The translations under genes were made by a program, and so were the position numbers. From contig DASCPX010000047.1 in NCBI GenBank assembly GCA_036012755.1, positions 1-64,000 of the forward strand: a stretch of DNA of 64,000 bases, given 5' to 3'. The notes under the pieces were generated by a model. That model did not search any database. It saw only the letters and a program-made list of their open reading frames with translations, and was not told the DNA's origin. Source of the stretch: Myxococcota bacterium. Its GTDB lineage: Bacteria > Myxococcota_A > UBA796 > CAJQPC01. This document shows, piece after piece, positions 1 through 58,505 of the stretch; position 1 is the first letter of the stretch; each line of letters begins with the position of its first letter.

Positions 1-20
1 GGCTCGGAGGGAGGACTGGG

Positions 21-1999
<1,979 letters not shown>

Positions 2000-2042
2000 G
2001 AACAACGCTCCGTTAATTTCGGGGGTTCGAAAAGTGGGGAGA

Positions 2043-2072
2043 GCAGGTAGGCACTTCGCCCGATGGCGTCAA
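2043..2072 (-). promoter_or_regulatory. Putative groES promoter TTGACG-N17-TACCTGC
   Basis: Same two boxes recur upstream of dnaK on the other strand. Confidence 0.65.
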
Positions 2073-2098
2073 CGGAAAATGTCGGCGCAGCGGGTCCC

Positions 2099-2137
2099 AG
2101 AGAAAGAAGACCCCACCGGTTCTCACCAGCGGGGTCT
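2099..2137 (-). terminator. Rho-independent terminator-like hairpin
   Basis: Minus strand AGACCCCGCTGGT-GAGA-ACCGGTGGGGTCT (13 bp, two G-U pairs, GNRA loop) followed by TCTTTCTCT. Confidence 0.7.
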
Positions 2138-2241
2138 CTTGGTCTGGTACGAGAAACGTCTGCTGGCCAAATCCAGCAGGGCTTCCCGGGACCTCCACGA
2201 GCCAGGTCAGGGCAGGGGGAACAGGCTCGTCTTGGTCTCGG
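2099..2241 (-). ncRNA. Candidate sigma54-dependent small RNA, about 140 nt, three stem-loops
   Basis: Bounded by a sigma54 motif and a terminator; hairpins at 2197-2230, 2160-2179 and 2108-2137; no convincing ORF. Confidence 0.55.
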
Positions 2242-2250
2242 CCGGAGTAG

Positions 2251-2267
2251 TTGCAGGACGCGTGCCA
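2251..2267 (-). promoter_or_regulatory. Sigma54 (-24/-12) promoter
   Basis: TGGCACG-CGTC-CTGCA versus consensus TGGCACG-N4-TTGCW; correct GG-N10-GC spacing. Confidence 0.65.
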
Positions 2268-2369
2268 ACACCCAAGTTGCGGAAATCACGTGTGGACGCT
2301 GGGTGGAACCAGCTGATGCATGACATGTGCGTCGTGGTTGCGCGCTCCAAGCTCCGGGACCGAAAGAGA

Positions 2370-2398
2370 TTGACGCTTTCGCGAGTGGCCTTACCTGC
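2370..2398 (+). promoter_or_regulatory. Putative dnaK promoter TTGACG-N16-TACCTGC
   Basis: Twin of the groES upstream motif. Confidence 0.65.
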
Positions 2399-2457
2399 AG
2401 GGCGTCGGCGGGAACCGCCATGGGTGCCCCGCCAGAGAACGCCTTCCAGAGGAACAA

Positions 2458-4353
2458 ATGGGCAAGATCATCGGCATCGACCTTGGAACCACCAACTCCG
2501 TCGTCTCCGTCATGGAAGGCGACAGCCCCGTCGTCGTCGTGAACGACGAGGGCGCCCGCACCACGCCGTCCGTGGTCGGCTTCACCAAGGACGGGGACCG
2601 GCTCGTCGGCGTCACGGCGCGGCGCCAGGCGATCACGAACCCGACCAACACCGTCTTCTCGGTCAAGCGCTTCATGGGCCTTCGCTTCGACAACGCCCAG
2701 AGGGAGATCGACCGCGTGCCCTACAGCGTCGCCCGCGGCTCCAGCGGCGACTGCCGCATCAAGGTCGGCGACAAGCTCTACAGCGCCCCCGAGGTCTCGG
2801 CGATGGTGCTCCAGAAGCTGAAGGCCCAGGCCGAGAAGTATCTCGGTCAGCCCGTCACAGAGGCCGTCATCACGGTCCCCGCCTACTTCAACGACGCCCA
2901 GCGCCAGGCGACGAAGGACGCCGGCCAGATCGCGGGCCTCGAGGTCAAGCGCATCATCAACGAGCCCACCGCCGCTGCTCTCGCCTACGGTGTCGACAAG
3001 AAGGAAGACGAGGTCGTCGCCGTCTACGACTTCGGTGGTGGCACCTTCGACGTCAGCATCCTCGAGGTCGGCGACAACGTCGTCGAGGTCAAGTCGACCG
3101 CCGGCAACACCCACCTCGGCGGAGACGACATCGACCAGGAGCTCATCCAGTGGCTCGTCGCCGAGTTCAAGAAGGAGCACGGCATCGACGTCGCGGGCGA
3201 CAAGATGGTGCTCCAGCGCCTCAAGGACGCCGCGGAGAAGGCCAAGATCGAGCTCTCTTCGAGCCCGACCACCAACATCAACCTGCCCTTCCTCAGCGCG
3301 GACGCGACCGGCCCGAAGCACCTCATCCGCGACCTCTCCCGCGGTGAGTTCGAGCGCATGATCGACAAGATCGTCGAGGACACCCTCGGCCCCTGTCGGC
3401 AGGCCCTCAAGGACGCCGGTGTCAGCGCCAGCGAGATCGACGAGGTCATCCTCGTCGGAGGCTCCACCCGCATCCCGATGGTCCAGCAGAAGGTCATCGC
3501 GCTCTTCGGAAAGGAGCCCAACCGCAGCGTCAACCCGGACGAGGTCGTCAGCGTCGGCGCCGCCATCCAGGGCGGTGTGCTCGCCGGTGACGTCACCGAC
3601 ATGCTGCTCCTCGACGTCACTCCGCTGTCCATGGGCATCGAGACCCTCGGCGGCGTGATGACCGTGCTCATCCCCCGCAACACCACCATCCCGACGAGCA
3701 AGGGCGAGATCTTCTCCACCGCCGCGGACAACCAGACCGCCGTCGACGTCCAGGTCTTCCAAGGCGAGCGGCAGTTCGCCAGGGACAACAGCCGCCTGGG
3801 CGAGTTCCGCCTCGACGGCATCCCCGCCGCGCCTCGCGGCATGCCCCAGATCGAGGTCAGCTTCAGCCTGGACGCCAACGGCATCCTGAACGTCAAGGCC
3901 AAGGACAAGGCCACCGGCCGCGAGCAGGAGATCACCGTGACCTCCCAGGGCCTCTCCCAGGACGAGGTCGACCGCCTGGTCAAGGAGGCGGAGGCTAACG
4001 CCGCCGAGGACAGCCGCAAGAAGGACGTCGTGGAGGCTCGGAACAACCTCGACAACCTGACCTACCAGACCGAGAAGCTCCTCGGCGAGCACAAGGAGAA
4101 GCTCCCGGCCGAGCACGTCACCGCCATCGAAGCTGCGCTCGAGAAGGCCAAGGAGGCCAAGGACTCGGACGACCTCGAGACCCTCAAGGGCGCCTTCGAC
4201 GAGCTGACTTCGGCGAGCCACAAGCTGGCCGAGGTGATGTACCAGCAGGGTGGCGCCGCCGGCGGGCCGGCCCCGACGCCCGAGACCGGCAGCGACCCGA
4301 GCTCCGACGACGGCGGTGACGACGTCATCGACGCCGAGTTCGAAGAGGCCTGA
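2458..4353 (+). CDS. dnaK: Chaperone DnaK (Hsp70)
   Basis: [34 protein letters not shown]-terminal DAEFEE. Confidence 0.99.
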
Positions 4354-4418
4354 GAGCCACGAGACGTGACGGGGCCGCGTATCGCGGGTACGTGGCCCCA
4401 CGCTTTGTTGGAGCTGTG

Positions 4419-5513
4419 GTGACCAAGCGCGACTACTACGAGGTCCTTGGTGTCCAAAAGGACGCCGACGCCAAGGCGCTCAAGAAGGCCTATCGCACGC
4501 TCGCCATGCAGTTCCATCCGGACCGGAATCCGGATGATCCCCAGGCAGAGGACAAGTTCAAGGAGGCCTCGGAGGCCTACGAGGTCCTCTCCGATCCGGA
4601 AAAGCGGGGCACCTACGACCGCTTCGGCCACGCCGGACTCCAGGGGCAGGGCTACCAGCCCGGCTTCCAGGACATGTCCGACATCTTCAGCCACTTCGGC
4701 GACATCTTCGGAGACATCTTCGGCGGTCGGCGAGGCGGCGCCCGGGGGCCTCGTCGCGGTGCCGACCTGGAGCTGCGGCTTCCGATCGAGTTCATGGAGG
4801 CCGTCCAGGGGGCCGAGAGGGAGATCGAGGTCCCGCGCAGCGTGGGCTGTGAGACTTGCGCCGGAAGCGGTGCCAAGCCCGGCACCAAGCTCGTCTCCTG
4901 CCAGACCTGCGCCGGGCGCGGCGAGGTCGTCCAGCAGCAGATGTTCCTCCGCATTCGCACGACCTGTCCGGACTGCAGGGGCCAGGGCAAGCACATCGAG
5001 ACCCCTTGCGAGGAGTGCAGCGGGCGGGGCAAGGTCCGCCGCGTCGAGAAGCTCACGGTGAAGTGGCCCGGTGGGGTCGACACTGGCACGCAGATCCGCA
5101 ACCGCAGCCGGGGCGAAGCTGGCGAGCCGGGGGCGCCCGCCGGAGACCTCTACGTCACGCTCGTCGTGCAGCCCCATCCCTTCTTCAAGCGCGACGGGGC
5201 GGACATCTACTGCCAGGTCCCGATCAGCTATCCCCAGGCCTGCCTCGGGGCGGAGCTTCAGATCCCCACCGTGGCGGAGGAGGCGACGCTGAAGATCCCT
5301 CGCGGCACCCCCAGCGGCAAGGTCTTCAAGCTCTCGGGGCATGGCATCCAGCCTCACAACCGTCGAAGCCGGGGCGACCAGCACGTCCAGGTCGTCGTCG
5401 ACGTCCCGAAGAAGCTGTCGGCCGAGGAAGAGGAGATCATTCGCAAGCTGGCCGAGTTCCAGGACGGCTCGGTGGGCGAGAAGAACTGGTTTGCGGACCT
5501 CTTCAACTTCTGA
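4419..5513 (+). CDS. dnaJ: Chaperone DnaJ
   Basis: J-domain HPD, G/F region, four CxxCxGxG repeats; GTG start after GGAG. Confidence 0.97.
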
Positions 5514-5529
5514 GGTCGGGAGAGACAGG

Positions 5530-6521
<992 letters not shown>

Positions 6522-6522
<1 letters not shown>

Positions 6523-7376
6523 TGCTGACGACGGAGGAGCTGAAGCAGATCCGGCGCATCAGCCTCCAGGCCGGCCGACGGGTCGATTCGCTCTTCGCCG
6601 GGGGCTACCGCTCGGCCTTTCGGGGGCGGGGCATGGAGTTCGAGGAGGTGCGGCCCTACGTGCCTGGAGACGACGTGCGCCACATCGACTGGAACGTCAC
6701 GGCCCGAAGCGCTGACGAAGTCTTCGTGAAGGAGTTCCACGAGGAGCGCGAGCTCACGTTGATGCTCGCGCTCGACTGCTCCGGGTCCATGGCCTTCGGG
6801 TCCGAGACCGACAAGCGCCTGCAGATGGCTCGGCTCGCCGGAGGGCTGGCATACGCGGCGATCCGGAACGACGACCGGGTCGGGCTCTGCGTCTTCACGG
6901 ATCAGATCGAGCTCTTCGTCCCCCCTCGGAAGTCCCGTGGCCATGCCTGGAGGGTGATCCGCGAGGTCTTCGAGCATCGCCCGGCGCGCGCAGGGACCGA
7001 CGTCATGGGGGCCGCCGAGCACCTCGGAAAGGTCTTGAAGCGCCGCGCGGTCGTCTGCTTCATCAGCGACTTCCTCGTCTACCAGGACACCCGGCGCGCC
7101 ATGGCTTCGTTGGCCTCCCGGCACCGGGTGCACGGCTTCGTCCTGCACGACCCGTTGGAGGCGCGGCCCCCACGTGGATCTGGTCTCGTCGAGGTCGTCG
7201 ACTCCGAGACCGGCCAGGGTCGCCTCGTCGAGCTCTCGTCCTTTCGAGGCGCCCTGGGGGTCGACGCGCGGGTCGCAATGCTGCGCCGGGCGGGCACGTA
7301 CGCATCAGCCGTGAGCACGACGCAGGACCCTTTCCGCGTGCTGTTGTCCCACTTCGAGCGAGTGGCACACCGGTGA
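6522..7376 (+). CDS. DUF58 vWA-like protein
   Basis: GMEFEEVRPYVPGDDVRHIDW, DCSGSM; follows moxR. Confidence 0.92.
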
Positions 7377-8167
7377 TCCTGCTGTTGGCATGCACCCCTA
7401 GGCTGGGCGAGCTCCGCGAAGGCCCGGTCGTCCAGACCCGGATCGAGGTGGGCGATGCCATCGTCGTCCACGTGGCCGCCCCCGGCGCGGACGGGATCGA
7501 ACTCGTCGAGCACGAGGAACTCACGGTCGATGTCCTCGAGGTCTCGGACGGCGCCTGGGATGTCACCTACAGCGGGCCGCCCGGCTCCTATGTGATCGAG
7601 GGTGTGCGCGTGCACCTCGGCGAGGAGATCGTGGAGGGGCCCCGGCACTTCGTCGATCTCGGCGTCGACGGCCCCCGCTCCGAGCTCGAGCCGCTCGCCA
7701 GCCTGGCGCCCCCGGTCGAGCGGCCCCTGTGGCCGTGGTTCCTTGGGCTGGCGCTGACCGGCTTCGTCACCGGCGCTGGCATCACGGGTTTCCTCGTCTG
7801 GAAGAACCGGGACACCAGCGAGCCACCGCCGCCGCCGGTCCCGCCGGACGTGGAGGCGCTGAAGGCGTGGGCCGCCGCGCTGACCCGGGGGCTGGACGAC
7901 CACGCCCTGGCGCTGGAGCTCTCGGCGATCTTCCGCCGCTACCTCGAGCGCATCACCGGGTTCCCCGCGACGGCGCTGACCTCGCCAGAGGTCCTCGATG
8001 TCTGCGGCCGGGTCGACGGCCTCGACCGCGACATGGCCAAGCGCCTCTTGATGGCGACCGACCTCATCAAGTTCGCGCGAGAGCAGGGCAGCCGCGAGCT
8101 CTTCGAGGAGCTCGGCCAGGGCCTCCGCGACATAGTCATCTCCACTCGACCCCCGCCCGAGCAATGA
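7373..8167 (+). CDS. Bat-operon membrane protein (DUF4381-like position)
   Basis: Single TM segment, IFRRYLE and DLIKFA motifs, operon position; coupled overlaps at both ends. Confidence 0.7.
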   Translation: MILLLACTPRLGELREGPVVQTRIEVGDAIVVHVAAPGADGIELVEHEELTVDVLEVSDGAWDVTYSGPPGSYVIEGVRVHLGEEIVEGPRHFVDLGVDGPRSELEPLASLAPPVERPLWPWFLGLALTGFVTGAGITGFLVWKNRDTSEPPPPPVPPDVEALKAWAAALTRGLDDHALALELSAIFRRYLERITGFPATALTSPEVLDVCGRVDGLDRDMAKRLLMATDLIKFAREQGSRELFEELGQGLRDIVISTRPPPEQ

Positions 8168-9156
8168 CGAGCCACTTCGAGTTCATGCACCCGTGGTTCC
8201 TCTTGCTGGCGCTCCTGCTGCCCCTGCTCGCGCTGCGGCCCTACTTCTTCGGTGGGCGCGCCCGCCTGAGGTGGTCGAACATCCACATGACCGAGGGCGG
8301 CGGGTCACTCCGAACGTCGCTCGCCAAGGTGCCAGAGGTCCTGGGTCTGGCCGGCGTCGCCCTCTTGATCGTAGCCCTGGCCCGGCCCCAGCTGACCCAC
8401 CGCGAGCGGGTCGTCGAGAGCGAGGGCATCGACATCGTCCTCGCTCTGGACACCTCGGGCTCGATGGATGCCCAGGACTTCGAGTACCACGGCCGCAAGC
8501 TGTCCCGACTGGAGCTCGCGAAGGCCGTGGTCAGCGACTTCGTCGAGGCCCGCGAGCACGACCGCATCTCGCTCGTCGTCTTTGGTGAGGAGGCCTTCAC
8601 CCAGGTCCCCCTGACCCTCGACCACCAGGCGCTCCTGCGCTTCCTGGACATGGTCCAGATCGGCATGGCCGGAGAGAACGCCACCGCGATCGGCCAGGCG
8701 ATAGCGGTCTCGACGACCCGCCTCGACACCCTGGACAACCCCACCAAGGTCGTCATCCTGCTCACCGACGGCCAGGACAACGCCAAGGGCACGATGAAGC
8801 CGCTGTTGGCTGCCGAGGCCGCGGCGGCACTCGGGGTGCGGGTCTACACCATCGGCGTCGGCTCGACCTCTGGGGGAGGGGGTGTCCTCGGCTTCTTCTC
8901 TCGACGCGGGAGCGCCGTCGACGAGTCCACCCTGGAGGCCGTCGCCGAGACGACGGGGGCGAAGTACTTCCGAGCCACCAACAGCCGCGGGCTCCAGGAG
9001 ATCTACAACACCATCGACGGCCTCGAGCGCAGCACGGCGGAGGTCAAGGAGTACGTGCATCGGGACGAGCTCTACCGCTACGCGCTGCTGTCCGGCCTCT
9101 TGCTGCTGGCACTGAGGGTGCTGTTGGACGCCACGTTGTTCCGGAGGATCCCGTGA
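8164..9156 (+). CDS. batA: BatA-like vWA membrane protein
   Basis: FMHPWFLLL N-terminus, ALARP, MIDAS DTSGS, LLTDG, YTIGVG. Confidence 0.88.
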   Translation: MTSHFEFMHPWFLLLALLLPLLALRPYFFGGRARLRWSNIHMTEGGGSLRTSLAKVPEVLGLAGVALLIVALARPQLTHRERVVESEGIDIVLALDTSGSMDAQDFEYHGRKLSRLELAKAVVSDFVEAREHDRISLVVFGEEAFTQVPLTLDHQALLRFLDMVQIGMAGENATAIGQAIAVSTTRLDTLDNPTKVVILLTDGQDNAKGTMKPLLAAEAAAALGVRVYTIGVGSTSGGGGVLGFFSRRGSAVDESTLEAVAETTGAKYFRATNSRGLQEIYNTIDGLERSTAEVKEYVHRDELYRYALLSGLLLLALRVLLDATLFRRIP

Positions 9157-58463: not shown

Positions 58464-58505
58464 CGGGACCTCCCTGCCTGGTGCAGGAGCAAGCCCCGTG
58501 CCAGC

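Follow-up and report, generated by a model that had tools for sequence, protein, structure and literature searches.

In the Myxococcota genome analyzed here, the spacer between groES and dnaK very probably holds a real sigma54-driven small-RNA gene, whose transcription we infer. Judged by its sequence, the segment from 2336 to 2099 on the minus strand of the window (the whole stretch of 64,000 nt analyzed) is a complete gene of this kind, with an enhancer, a sigma54 box, hairpin 1, hairpin 2, and a terminator. We further consider it likely, from comparisons of RNA and mRNA sequences, that this RNA pairs in trans with 5′ UTRs, including those of genes for DUF2330 proteins. The elements of the gene and its surroundings are:

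2319..2336, minus strand: predicted sigma54 enhancer, palindrome CACGAC-N6-GTCATG, beginning 95 nt 5′ of the predicted +1
2252..2267, minus strand: sigma54 (-24/-12) promoter box TGGCACGCGTCCTGCA, from sequence and conserved in homologs
2190..2237, minus strand: hairpin 1, outer and inner stem, from the fold and the arm-swap test
2205..2217, minus strand: conserved loop core CCCUGCCCUGACC, the predicted seed, from relatives' spacers and column counts
2149..2188, minus strand: hairpin 2, loop usually A-initial and often AAU, from covariation on a structure-blind alignment
2099..2138, minus strand: hairpin resembling an intrinsic terminator, GAGA-capped and followed by a U-rich tail, from sequence, with an equivalent in most homologs
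2044..2072, minus strand: groES promoter-like motif TTGACG-N17-TACCTG, from sequence, separate and 3′ of the terminator
1715..1999, minus strand: groES, neighbor outside the RNA gene
2458..4353, plus strand: dnaK, divergent neighbor outside the RNA gene

A preliminary description of this DNA had read a sigma54 box at 2267-2252 (minus strand), followed by two stems and a GNRA-capped hairpin with a U-rich tail, as a candidate unannotated regulatory RNA. All of these elements are where it placed them, and its reading of a sigma54-driven RNA is supported by the sequence comparisons below. The strict sigma54 pattern matched twice in the window, against 0.04 matches expected from shuffles, and rpoN was found in the same genome. 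The second match lies at 58488-58503 (minus strand), with a reading frame missed by the gene caller close behind it. From the spacing of the box and from stems opening at +1 to +5, the predicted start falls at ~2241, giving an RNA with a predicted length of roughly 140 nt. Within it, the inner stem of hairpin 1 (2230-2224/2203-2197) encloses a 20-nt loop (2223-2204), the inner stem of hairpin 2 is formed by 2179-2173/2166-2160, and the GAGA-capped terminator-like hairpin (2138-2107) is followed by an interrupted U-rich tail that runs to about 2099. Two details of the first reading survive in part: the 20-nt C/U-rich loop is present, but only 2217-2205 is conserved, and the 9-mer AGACCAAGA does precede hairpins 1 and 3, but it is altered in a same-genus relative and absent from the family alignment, and by these comparisons does not characterize the family. 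The first reading had missed the enhancer palindrome (2336-2319) altogether. Eight of 24 listed RNA-seq runs (share 0.04), none shown to contain the organism, all left the spacer uncovered, with coverage only on the coding ends of other organisms' groES/dnaK in four runs and nothing in the other four.

The minus-strand RNA of 143 nt folded into three hairpins with z = −5.5, a value reached by 0/200 shuffles, and no alternative breaking the terminator was seen in this fold. Over 2090-2245, the minus strand folded better than the plus strand (z = −4.9 vs −2.6). Across homologs, each 5′ arm of hairpin 1 fits its own 3′ arm better than the arms of others (−25.3 native vs −15.0 kcal/mol swapped), the native arm being the best in 24/43 cases, and the loop core stays open cheaply, at 1.1 kcal/mol in the window RNA. 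Covariation among relatives, proposed earlier as a check, was evident for hairpin 2: when 35 sequences were aligned without regard to structure, its 13 pairs had 80% of their cells paired, two-sided changes numbered 104, and covariation scored 0.64, compared with 0.15–0.21 for slid controls. Because G-U outnumbers A-C in hairpin 2 (58 vs 15 cells across these 35 homologs), the minus strand is supported as the RNA strand, as the first reading had it. Overall, the stems vary in sequence yet keep pairing, while the loop core stays fixed. The loop type of hairpin 2 (A-initial, often AAU) recurred in 38/43 homologs, and this hairpin is possibly a protein or nuclease site. A coding reading of the core, as a start-Pro-stop inside it, was rejected since homologs conserve neither the upstream ATG nor the stop.

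Upstream of the box, the palindrome CACGAC-N6-GTCRYG occurred in 26/32 homologs with at least 9 of 12 positions matching, against a shuffle mean of 2.2. Its start fell at −86/−87, −95 to −97, −107, or −117/−118 in 24 of these 26, i.e., in steps of one helical turn. Sigma54 enhancers are expected at such steps, and the palindrome is a predicted one. A strong enhancer was found upstream of 0/15 candidate activator genes.

Next, we evaluated conservation from loci chosen independently of the loop. Specifically, groES-dnaK loci were fetched via the coding ends of both genes, and spacers were picked by the sigma54 box alone: CCSTGCCC was present in 9/9 relatives with a strict box in the spacer, 23–46 nt past the predicted start. 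Loci fetched in this way do not presuppose the motif, and they thus provide independent support for the core. Its first 8 nt (CCSUGCCC) are common across the order, with the third base being C in the window's family (f1) and G elsewhere. Scanning a species collection for box plus core yielded 43 matches, 26 of which adjoined groES; by their titles, most came from Myxococcota/Deltaproteobacteria MAGs, and others were labeled differently with the same gene order. The other 17/43, with no groES nearby, were regarded as chance matches or unrelated promoters of the sigma54 type and excluded. A covariance model, R2, was then built from 35 of 43 collected elements, among which the invariance of the core holds by construction, as they were collected with core-requiring patterns. 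At ≥37 bits, R2 matched 14/20 same-order genomes, with one such copy each, and 0/130 genomes outside the order; about 30 bits added one further same-order genome and two outside genomes. Promoter and hairpins, on whose presence in relatives the preliminary description had staked its reading, are conserved. Seven R2 matches came from outside the training set, three of them already listed by a looser pattern that included the enhancer; the core was present in 7/7, which adds to its independent support, and the enhancer in 6/7, the model itself containing no enhancer. A second copy in the window's own genome was found neither by BLAST nor by the model, and viral contigs gave two pattern matches, neither with the architecture.

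The order of the elements is kept, as compared across these sequences, while the position and orientation of the unit are not. In one genus (g4), the four genomes examined all carry the unit in the orientation opposite to groES, and in family f3 it lies at unrelated loci, unlinked from groES in 11 loci and in 3 further f3 matches. The f3 core is without the UGAC tail, which is why a stricter pattern gave 0/18 in this family and a looser one including the enhancer was needed to find it. Most homologs have an equivalent of the terminal hairpin with a U tract. Several f7 and f3 genomes differ in that hairpin 2 bears the U tail or comes last. Two weak model matches are less regular: one outside the order (L379, G108:C121:355-465) combines a sigma54-like box with a stretch that resembles the core but is one base longer, and the other (L380, G028:C115:2720-2837), a second copy in an f2 genome, has enhancer and core and no clear hairpin 2. 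In a same-genus relative (G002, L010:560-1480), the terminator is separated from the groES promoter by ~850 extra bases that include palindromes and repeats and look like an insertion of repeats.

A promoter and terminator of its own, independent of neighbors, together with a conserved accessible seed, are features of a trans-acting sRNA. The earlier suggestion that the C-rich loop could pair near ribosome-binding sites gained support from an enrichment of sites in f1 DUF2330 UTRs, alongside the enhancer phasing, conservation, and covariation described above. When the loop was matched against 5704 start regions in its own genome (5762 genes by our own calling, with script-made gene starts, some of them wrong), the best duplex was at a DUF2330 gene, with 12 contiguous pairs ending at −13. 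Matching stretches of at least 8 bases were found for 3/7 of the DUF2330 paralogs in this genome, and of at least 6 bases for 5/7. For other genomes, we used 30, 30 of 47, 28 of 28, and 30 of 37 matches to DUF2330; dropping duplicates and loci without usable N-terminus or upstream DNA left 106 UTRs outside the own genome. Among the matches listed, at least 7 complementary bases were present in 11/42 f1 DUF2330 5′ UTRs, against a background of 2% and a mean of 1.8 for shuffled seeds (P = 0.0005). After collapsing at 55% identity, 7/20 f1 clusters among the matches listed retained a site, vs 1.0 expected. These sites mirror the RNA in their spelling, with GCAGGG sites going with CCCUGC in the RNA and GCACGG sites with CCGUGC. 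Among the matches listed, GCAGGG:GCACGG stood at 9:1 for f1 and at 0:7 for the rest (Fisher P = 0.0004, with non-independent rows), the 0:7 side being weakened by a base composition that favors the G spelling 1.75-fold in f3; by 7-mers, the ratios among the matches listed were 6:1 and 0:3 (P = 0.03). Still among the matches listed, the UTRs with sites precede proteins that are 19–68% identical and spread over the tree, 12/18 site 3′ ends fall at −11 to −18, mostly just 5′ of the Shine-Dalgarno, and in genus g7, 3/4 C-type sites continue with TC, matching the g7 loop.

Several results point the other way. Genome-wide, the seed complement was not enriched upstream of starts, and the two site spellings did not track family in a pattern test of 151 genomes. 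An apparent flip in spelling across 10 genomes was mostly composition, with an ATC control giving G:C ratios of 201:115 in f3 and 151:173 in f1; reversed-pattern controls, including those for family-wise spelling, were unfair because real start sites are enriched. Most DUF2330 UTRs among the matches listed have no site. In f5–f7, 1/34 of these listed UTRs had at least 7 bases, a null result after collapsing, and for the listed f3 UTRs the count was 4/30 (P = 0.02), or 2/11 clusters (P = 0.14). In genera g1 and g4, again among the matches listed, the match is mostly not prolonged by the bases following the site. The DUF2330 family model found no gene in one f2 genome that has the RNA, and other targets must therefore exist if the pairing model is right. 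Genes for exported proteins made up 14/29 of the site-bearing genes in a −45 to −3 window (P = 0.09) and 10/17 in a narrower window chosen afterwards (P = 0.007), the only one in which they were significant, and beyond DUF2330, no protein family was conspicuous in the own genome.

We propose that an activator acting with sigma54, in response to a signal, would switch on the gene and yield the roughly 140-nt RNA, the C-rich loop of which would pair in trans with a G-rich site just 5′ of the Shine-Dalgarno. The target mRNAs, predicted to encode exported proteins and above all the DUF2330 family, would then be turned off as pairing blocks ribosome loading. Hfq was not found in the own genome (96% complete), and the RNA would act without it. 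That pairing represses in this manner is the reading toward which we lean, if only by a little; repression is preferred because it is the default for a site within the ribosome footprint and because it is the mode of C-rich loops in Staphylococcus aureus, as described in the available text of PMC3861533. A broader scenario, which we regard as doubtful, would have one activator driving sibling RNAs and lipoprotein genes alike, with the RNA gating a scattered and repeatedly duplicated family of exported proteins. The UTRs would have gained their sites independently and been re-spelled along with the seed, and the RNA would work free of Hfq, with hairpin 2 docking a partner protein.

Instead of pairing with mRNAs, the RNA could bind CsrA or another factor through the core and the hairpin 2 loop and serve as a decoy, in which case the UTR sites would reflect mRNA folding or a promoter feature. 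The negative genome-wide seed tests would fit this, as would the conservation of the hairpin 2 loop, which often has GGA at its base, and the presence of csrA in the own genome. However, CsrA needs an exposed GGA, usually in several copies, while the GGA here lies within stem pairs and gives way to GCA in 11/43 homologs, with the closing pair changed to match. Sponges such as CsrB/RsmZ have several exposed GGA loops, and the window RNA has one GGA, paired, at the base of hairpin 2. A decoy also leaves unexplained why the spelling of the sites follows that of the RNA, and we consider it unlikely.

The same RNA with the same pairing could alternatively activate its targets, by freeing a ribosome-binding site from a fold of the G-rich UTR site with C-rich signal-peptide codons. 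In predicted folds, many sites are able to pair with the signal-peptide codons of their own gene, which makes internal folding or activation possible, and for most of them the partner in the fold is coding sequence further 3′. With the site blocked, the ribosome-binding region opened more easily by >1 kcal/mol in 18/32 UTRs, an uncontrolled count, and blocking any G-rich stretch would ease opening. The recurrence of the enhancer before several lipoprotein-like genes would suit a joint up-regulation. Pairing partners vary from gene to gene, however, with no conserved inhibitory fold seen, and most sites lie within the ribosome footprint, so that we judge activation to be quite unlikely.

The preliminary description had alternatively offered a sigma54 leader attenuating groESL. 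In favor of such a leader, or of read-through into groESL, the unit is on the same strand and directly upstream of groES in 29/32 distinct folded spacer elements (31 with near-duplicates and the window), and two f2 loci (L038 and L056) are without a clear terminator before the groES promoter, making read-through possible there. A cis leader would always be upstream and on the strand of one gene class, and this unit is not: attenuating groESL cannot be its general job, because it is inverted in g4 and unlinked in f3. In addition, a promoter-like motif belonging to groES follows the terminator, four spacers (L011, L015, L017, and L021) are without the unit, and no fold that would break the terminator was seen, all of which leaves a groESL leader very unlikely. 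Still less credible is a feedback decoy for the sigma54 polymerase, with a loop that mimics or pairs with the -24 element: CCGUGCCC does resemble the template strand of the box and goes with the G-type core of 34/43 homologs, but promoters in the window's family retain the usual box alongside a C-type core, and the -24 element is read as double-stranded DNA.

Having set these readings aside, a trans-acting and probably target-pairing RNA can be compared with known regulators. The Qrr sRNAs of Vibrio are under the control of sigma54 and an enhancer-binding protein, act as siblings under one activator, depend on Hfq, and have quorum-sensing targets. The RNA described here resembles them in its predicted sigma54 and enhancer control and in its candidate sibling RNAs, with no homology in the Rfam scans. 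RybB and MicA are envelope-stress sRNAs that are driven by sigmaE and limit several exported proteins. Similarly, VrrA, as far as the available text of PMC2628432 describes it, is a small RNA limiting several exported proteins via pairing of 5′ regions, which is predicted here as well; VrrA, RybB, and MicA differ in being sigmaE-driven rather than sigma54-driven, and none is homologous. The Rsa-family sRNAs and RNAIII of Staphylococcus aureus, in the available text of PMC3861533, share an accessible C-rich hairpin motif that pairs with initiation regions and find Hfq largely dispensable, a likeness to the host here, in which Hfq was not found. They are likewise not homologous, and the present RNA differs in its predicted sigma54 control, its Gram-negative host, and a predicted site beside, not on, the Shine-Dalgarno.

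The closest analogue is Pxr of Myxococcus xanthus (Cystobacterineae), for which the available texts (PMC5684412, PMC5568312, PMC11928866, PMC10217877) describe an RNA of about 110–140 nt with a predicted sigma54 promoter and enhancer, three stem-loops including a terminator, and functional weight on the C-rich first loop. The window RNA shares the sigma54 promoter and three stem-loops, and also a host without detectable Hfq, as stated for M. xanthus in the available part of 10.1101/2025.09.11.675593. Pxr itself has conserved SL1 and SL2 sequences, is processed to a short form, and controls fruiting-body development. The preliminary description had pointed to Pxr and stopped short of claiming homology, rightly so. 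Rfam 15 gave no match over the element, either in window 1-6000 (E up to 10) or at 10 homolog loci (E up to 5), in the scan that had been suggested for it. RF01812 did not match at the locus up to E 10, with a gathering cut-off of 80 bits and true Pxr copies scoring 111–127 bits; the Pxr model had no match over 101 genomes of the phylum, a set with no positive control. Conversely, neither the core nor the enhancer occurs in five true Pxr copies, which have a different upstream motif and gave no R2 match at E 1; 4/5 have the NtrC-like regulator pxrR upstream, whereas the RNA here adjoins dnaK and groES and does not sit behind pxrR/pxrK. Pxr has a run of C in place of CCSUGCCC(UGAC), here in a loop of 16–55 nt, and the enhancer, the lineage, and the predicted targets (exported-protein mRNAs) differ too. 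A diverged Pxr homolog would account for the sigma54 box, three hairpins, and C-rich first loop found in both, and a short GUUCCCCC run is common to the window and Pxr; this run is not conserved in the window RNA's family, and such homology is, like the polymerase decoy, extremely improbable. By core, model, upstream motif, and synteny, Pxr is an analogue, and the RNA described here is a new sRNA family and a regulator of a known kind.

No description of the window RNA was found in the literature searched, with subscription papers and bioRxiv supplements (possible motif lists) outside that search, and a term search of 10.64898/2026.10.21.760802 returned none either. Pxr is the characterised myxobacterial sRNA in the literature we found, its targets having long been unknown according to the available texts. 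This analysis adds a second sigma54-driven example, found in a sister lineage that is uncultured, and supplies for it an enhancer consensus and a candidate family of targets. It also documents that the unit has relocated in f3, sets it against real Pxr copies, and brings in candidate sibling RNAs with the same enhancer. Hfq-free pairing is now open to reporter testing. For DUF2330, for which we found no match in the literature searched and no solved structure related by sequence, it provides a first regulatory handle. If true, a seed and target that change together across paralogs would offer a clear natural example of an sRNA co-evolving with its targets.

Further candidates of this kind were seen in the same analysis. 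A second sigma54-driven RNA candidate, of about 90 nt, lies at G000:C126:3130-3350 (minus strand; L165/L166), upstream of a diacylglycerol-kinase-like gene (labeled by eye). Its enhancer match is the best found in this genome, with a second site at 3617, and the RNA combines a C-rich loop with a strong terminator. Matches to it were found in 8/40 relatives, 7 of these loci having box, enhancer, and terminator; some copies have GUGCCC in the loop, and L199 looks like an f3 member. At G000:C193:40780-40970 (minus strand; L177), a third sigma54 box is followed by a ~170-nt multi-hairpin RNA and a terminator. Neither locus matched Rfam. Sigma54 boxes with the same enhancer were also found at G000:C53:5526, C1:6719, C149:52425, C179:89557, C129:55647, and C70:99161, with enhancer phases of −86, −96, and −97; all six are 5′ of lipoprotein-like or secreted-protein genes, a sequence pattern that suggests a regulon. 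In the window itself, groES and dnaK share the promoter-like motif TTGACG-N16/17-TACCTG (2044-2072, minus strand, and 2370-2397, plus strand), perhaps a heat-shock sigma factor site, and a TTGAC...GTGCCTA-like motif was read by eye 5′ of groES in many relatives. Beyond dnaK-dnaJ, positions 5530-9156 hold genes labeled by eye as a MoxR-like ATPase, a DUF58-like protein, and von Willebrand A (BatA-like) proteins.
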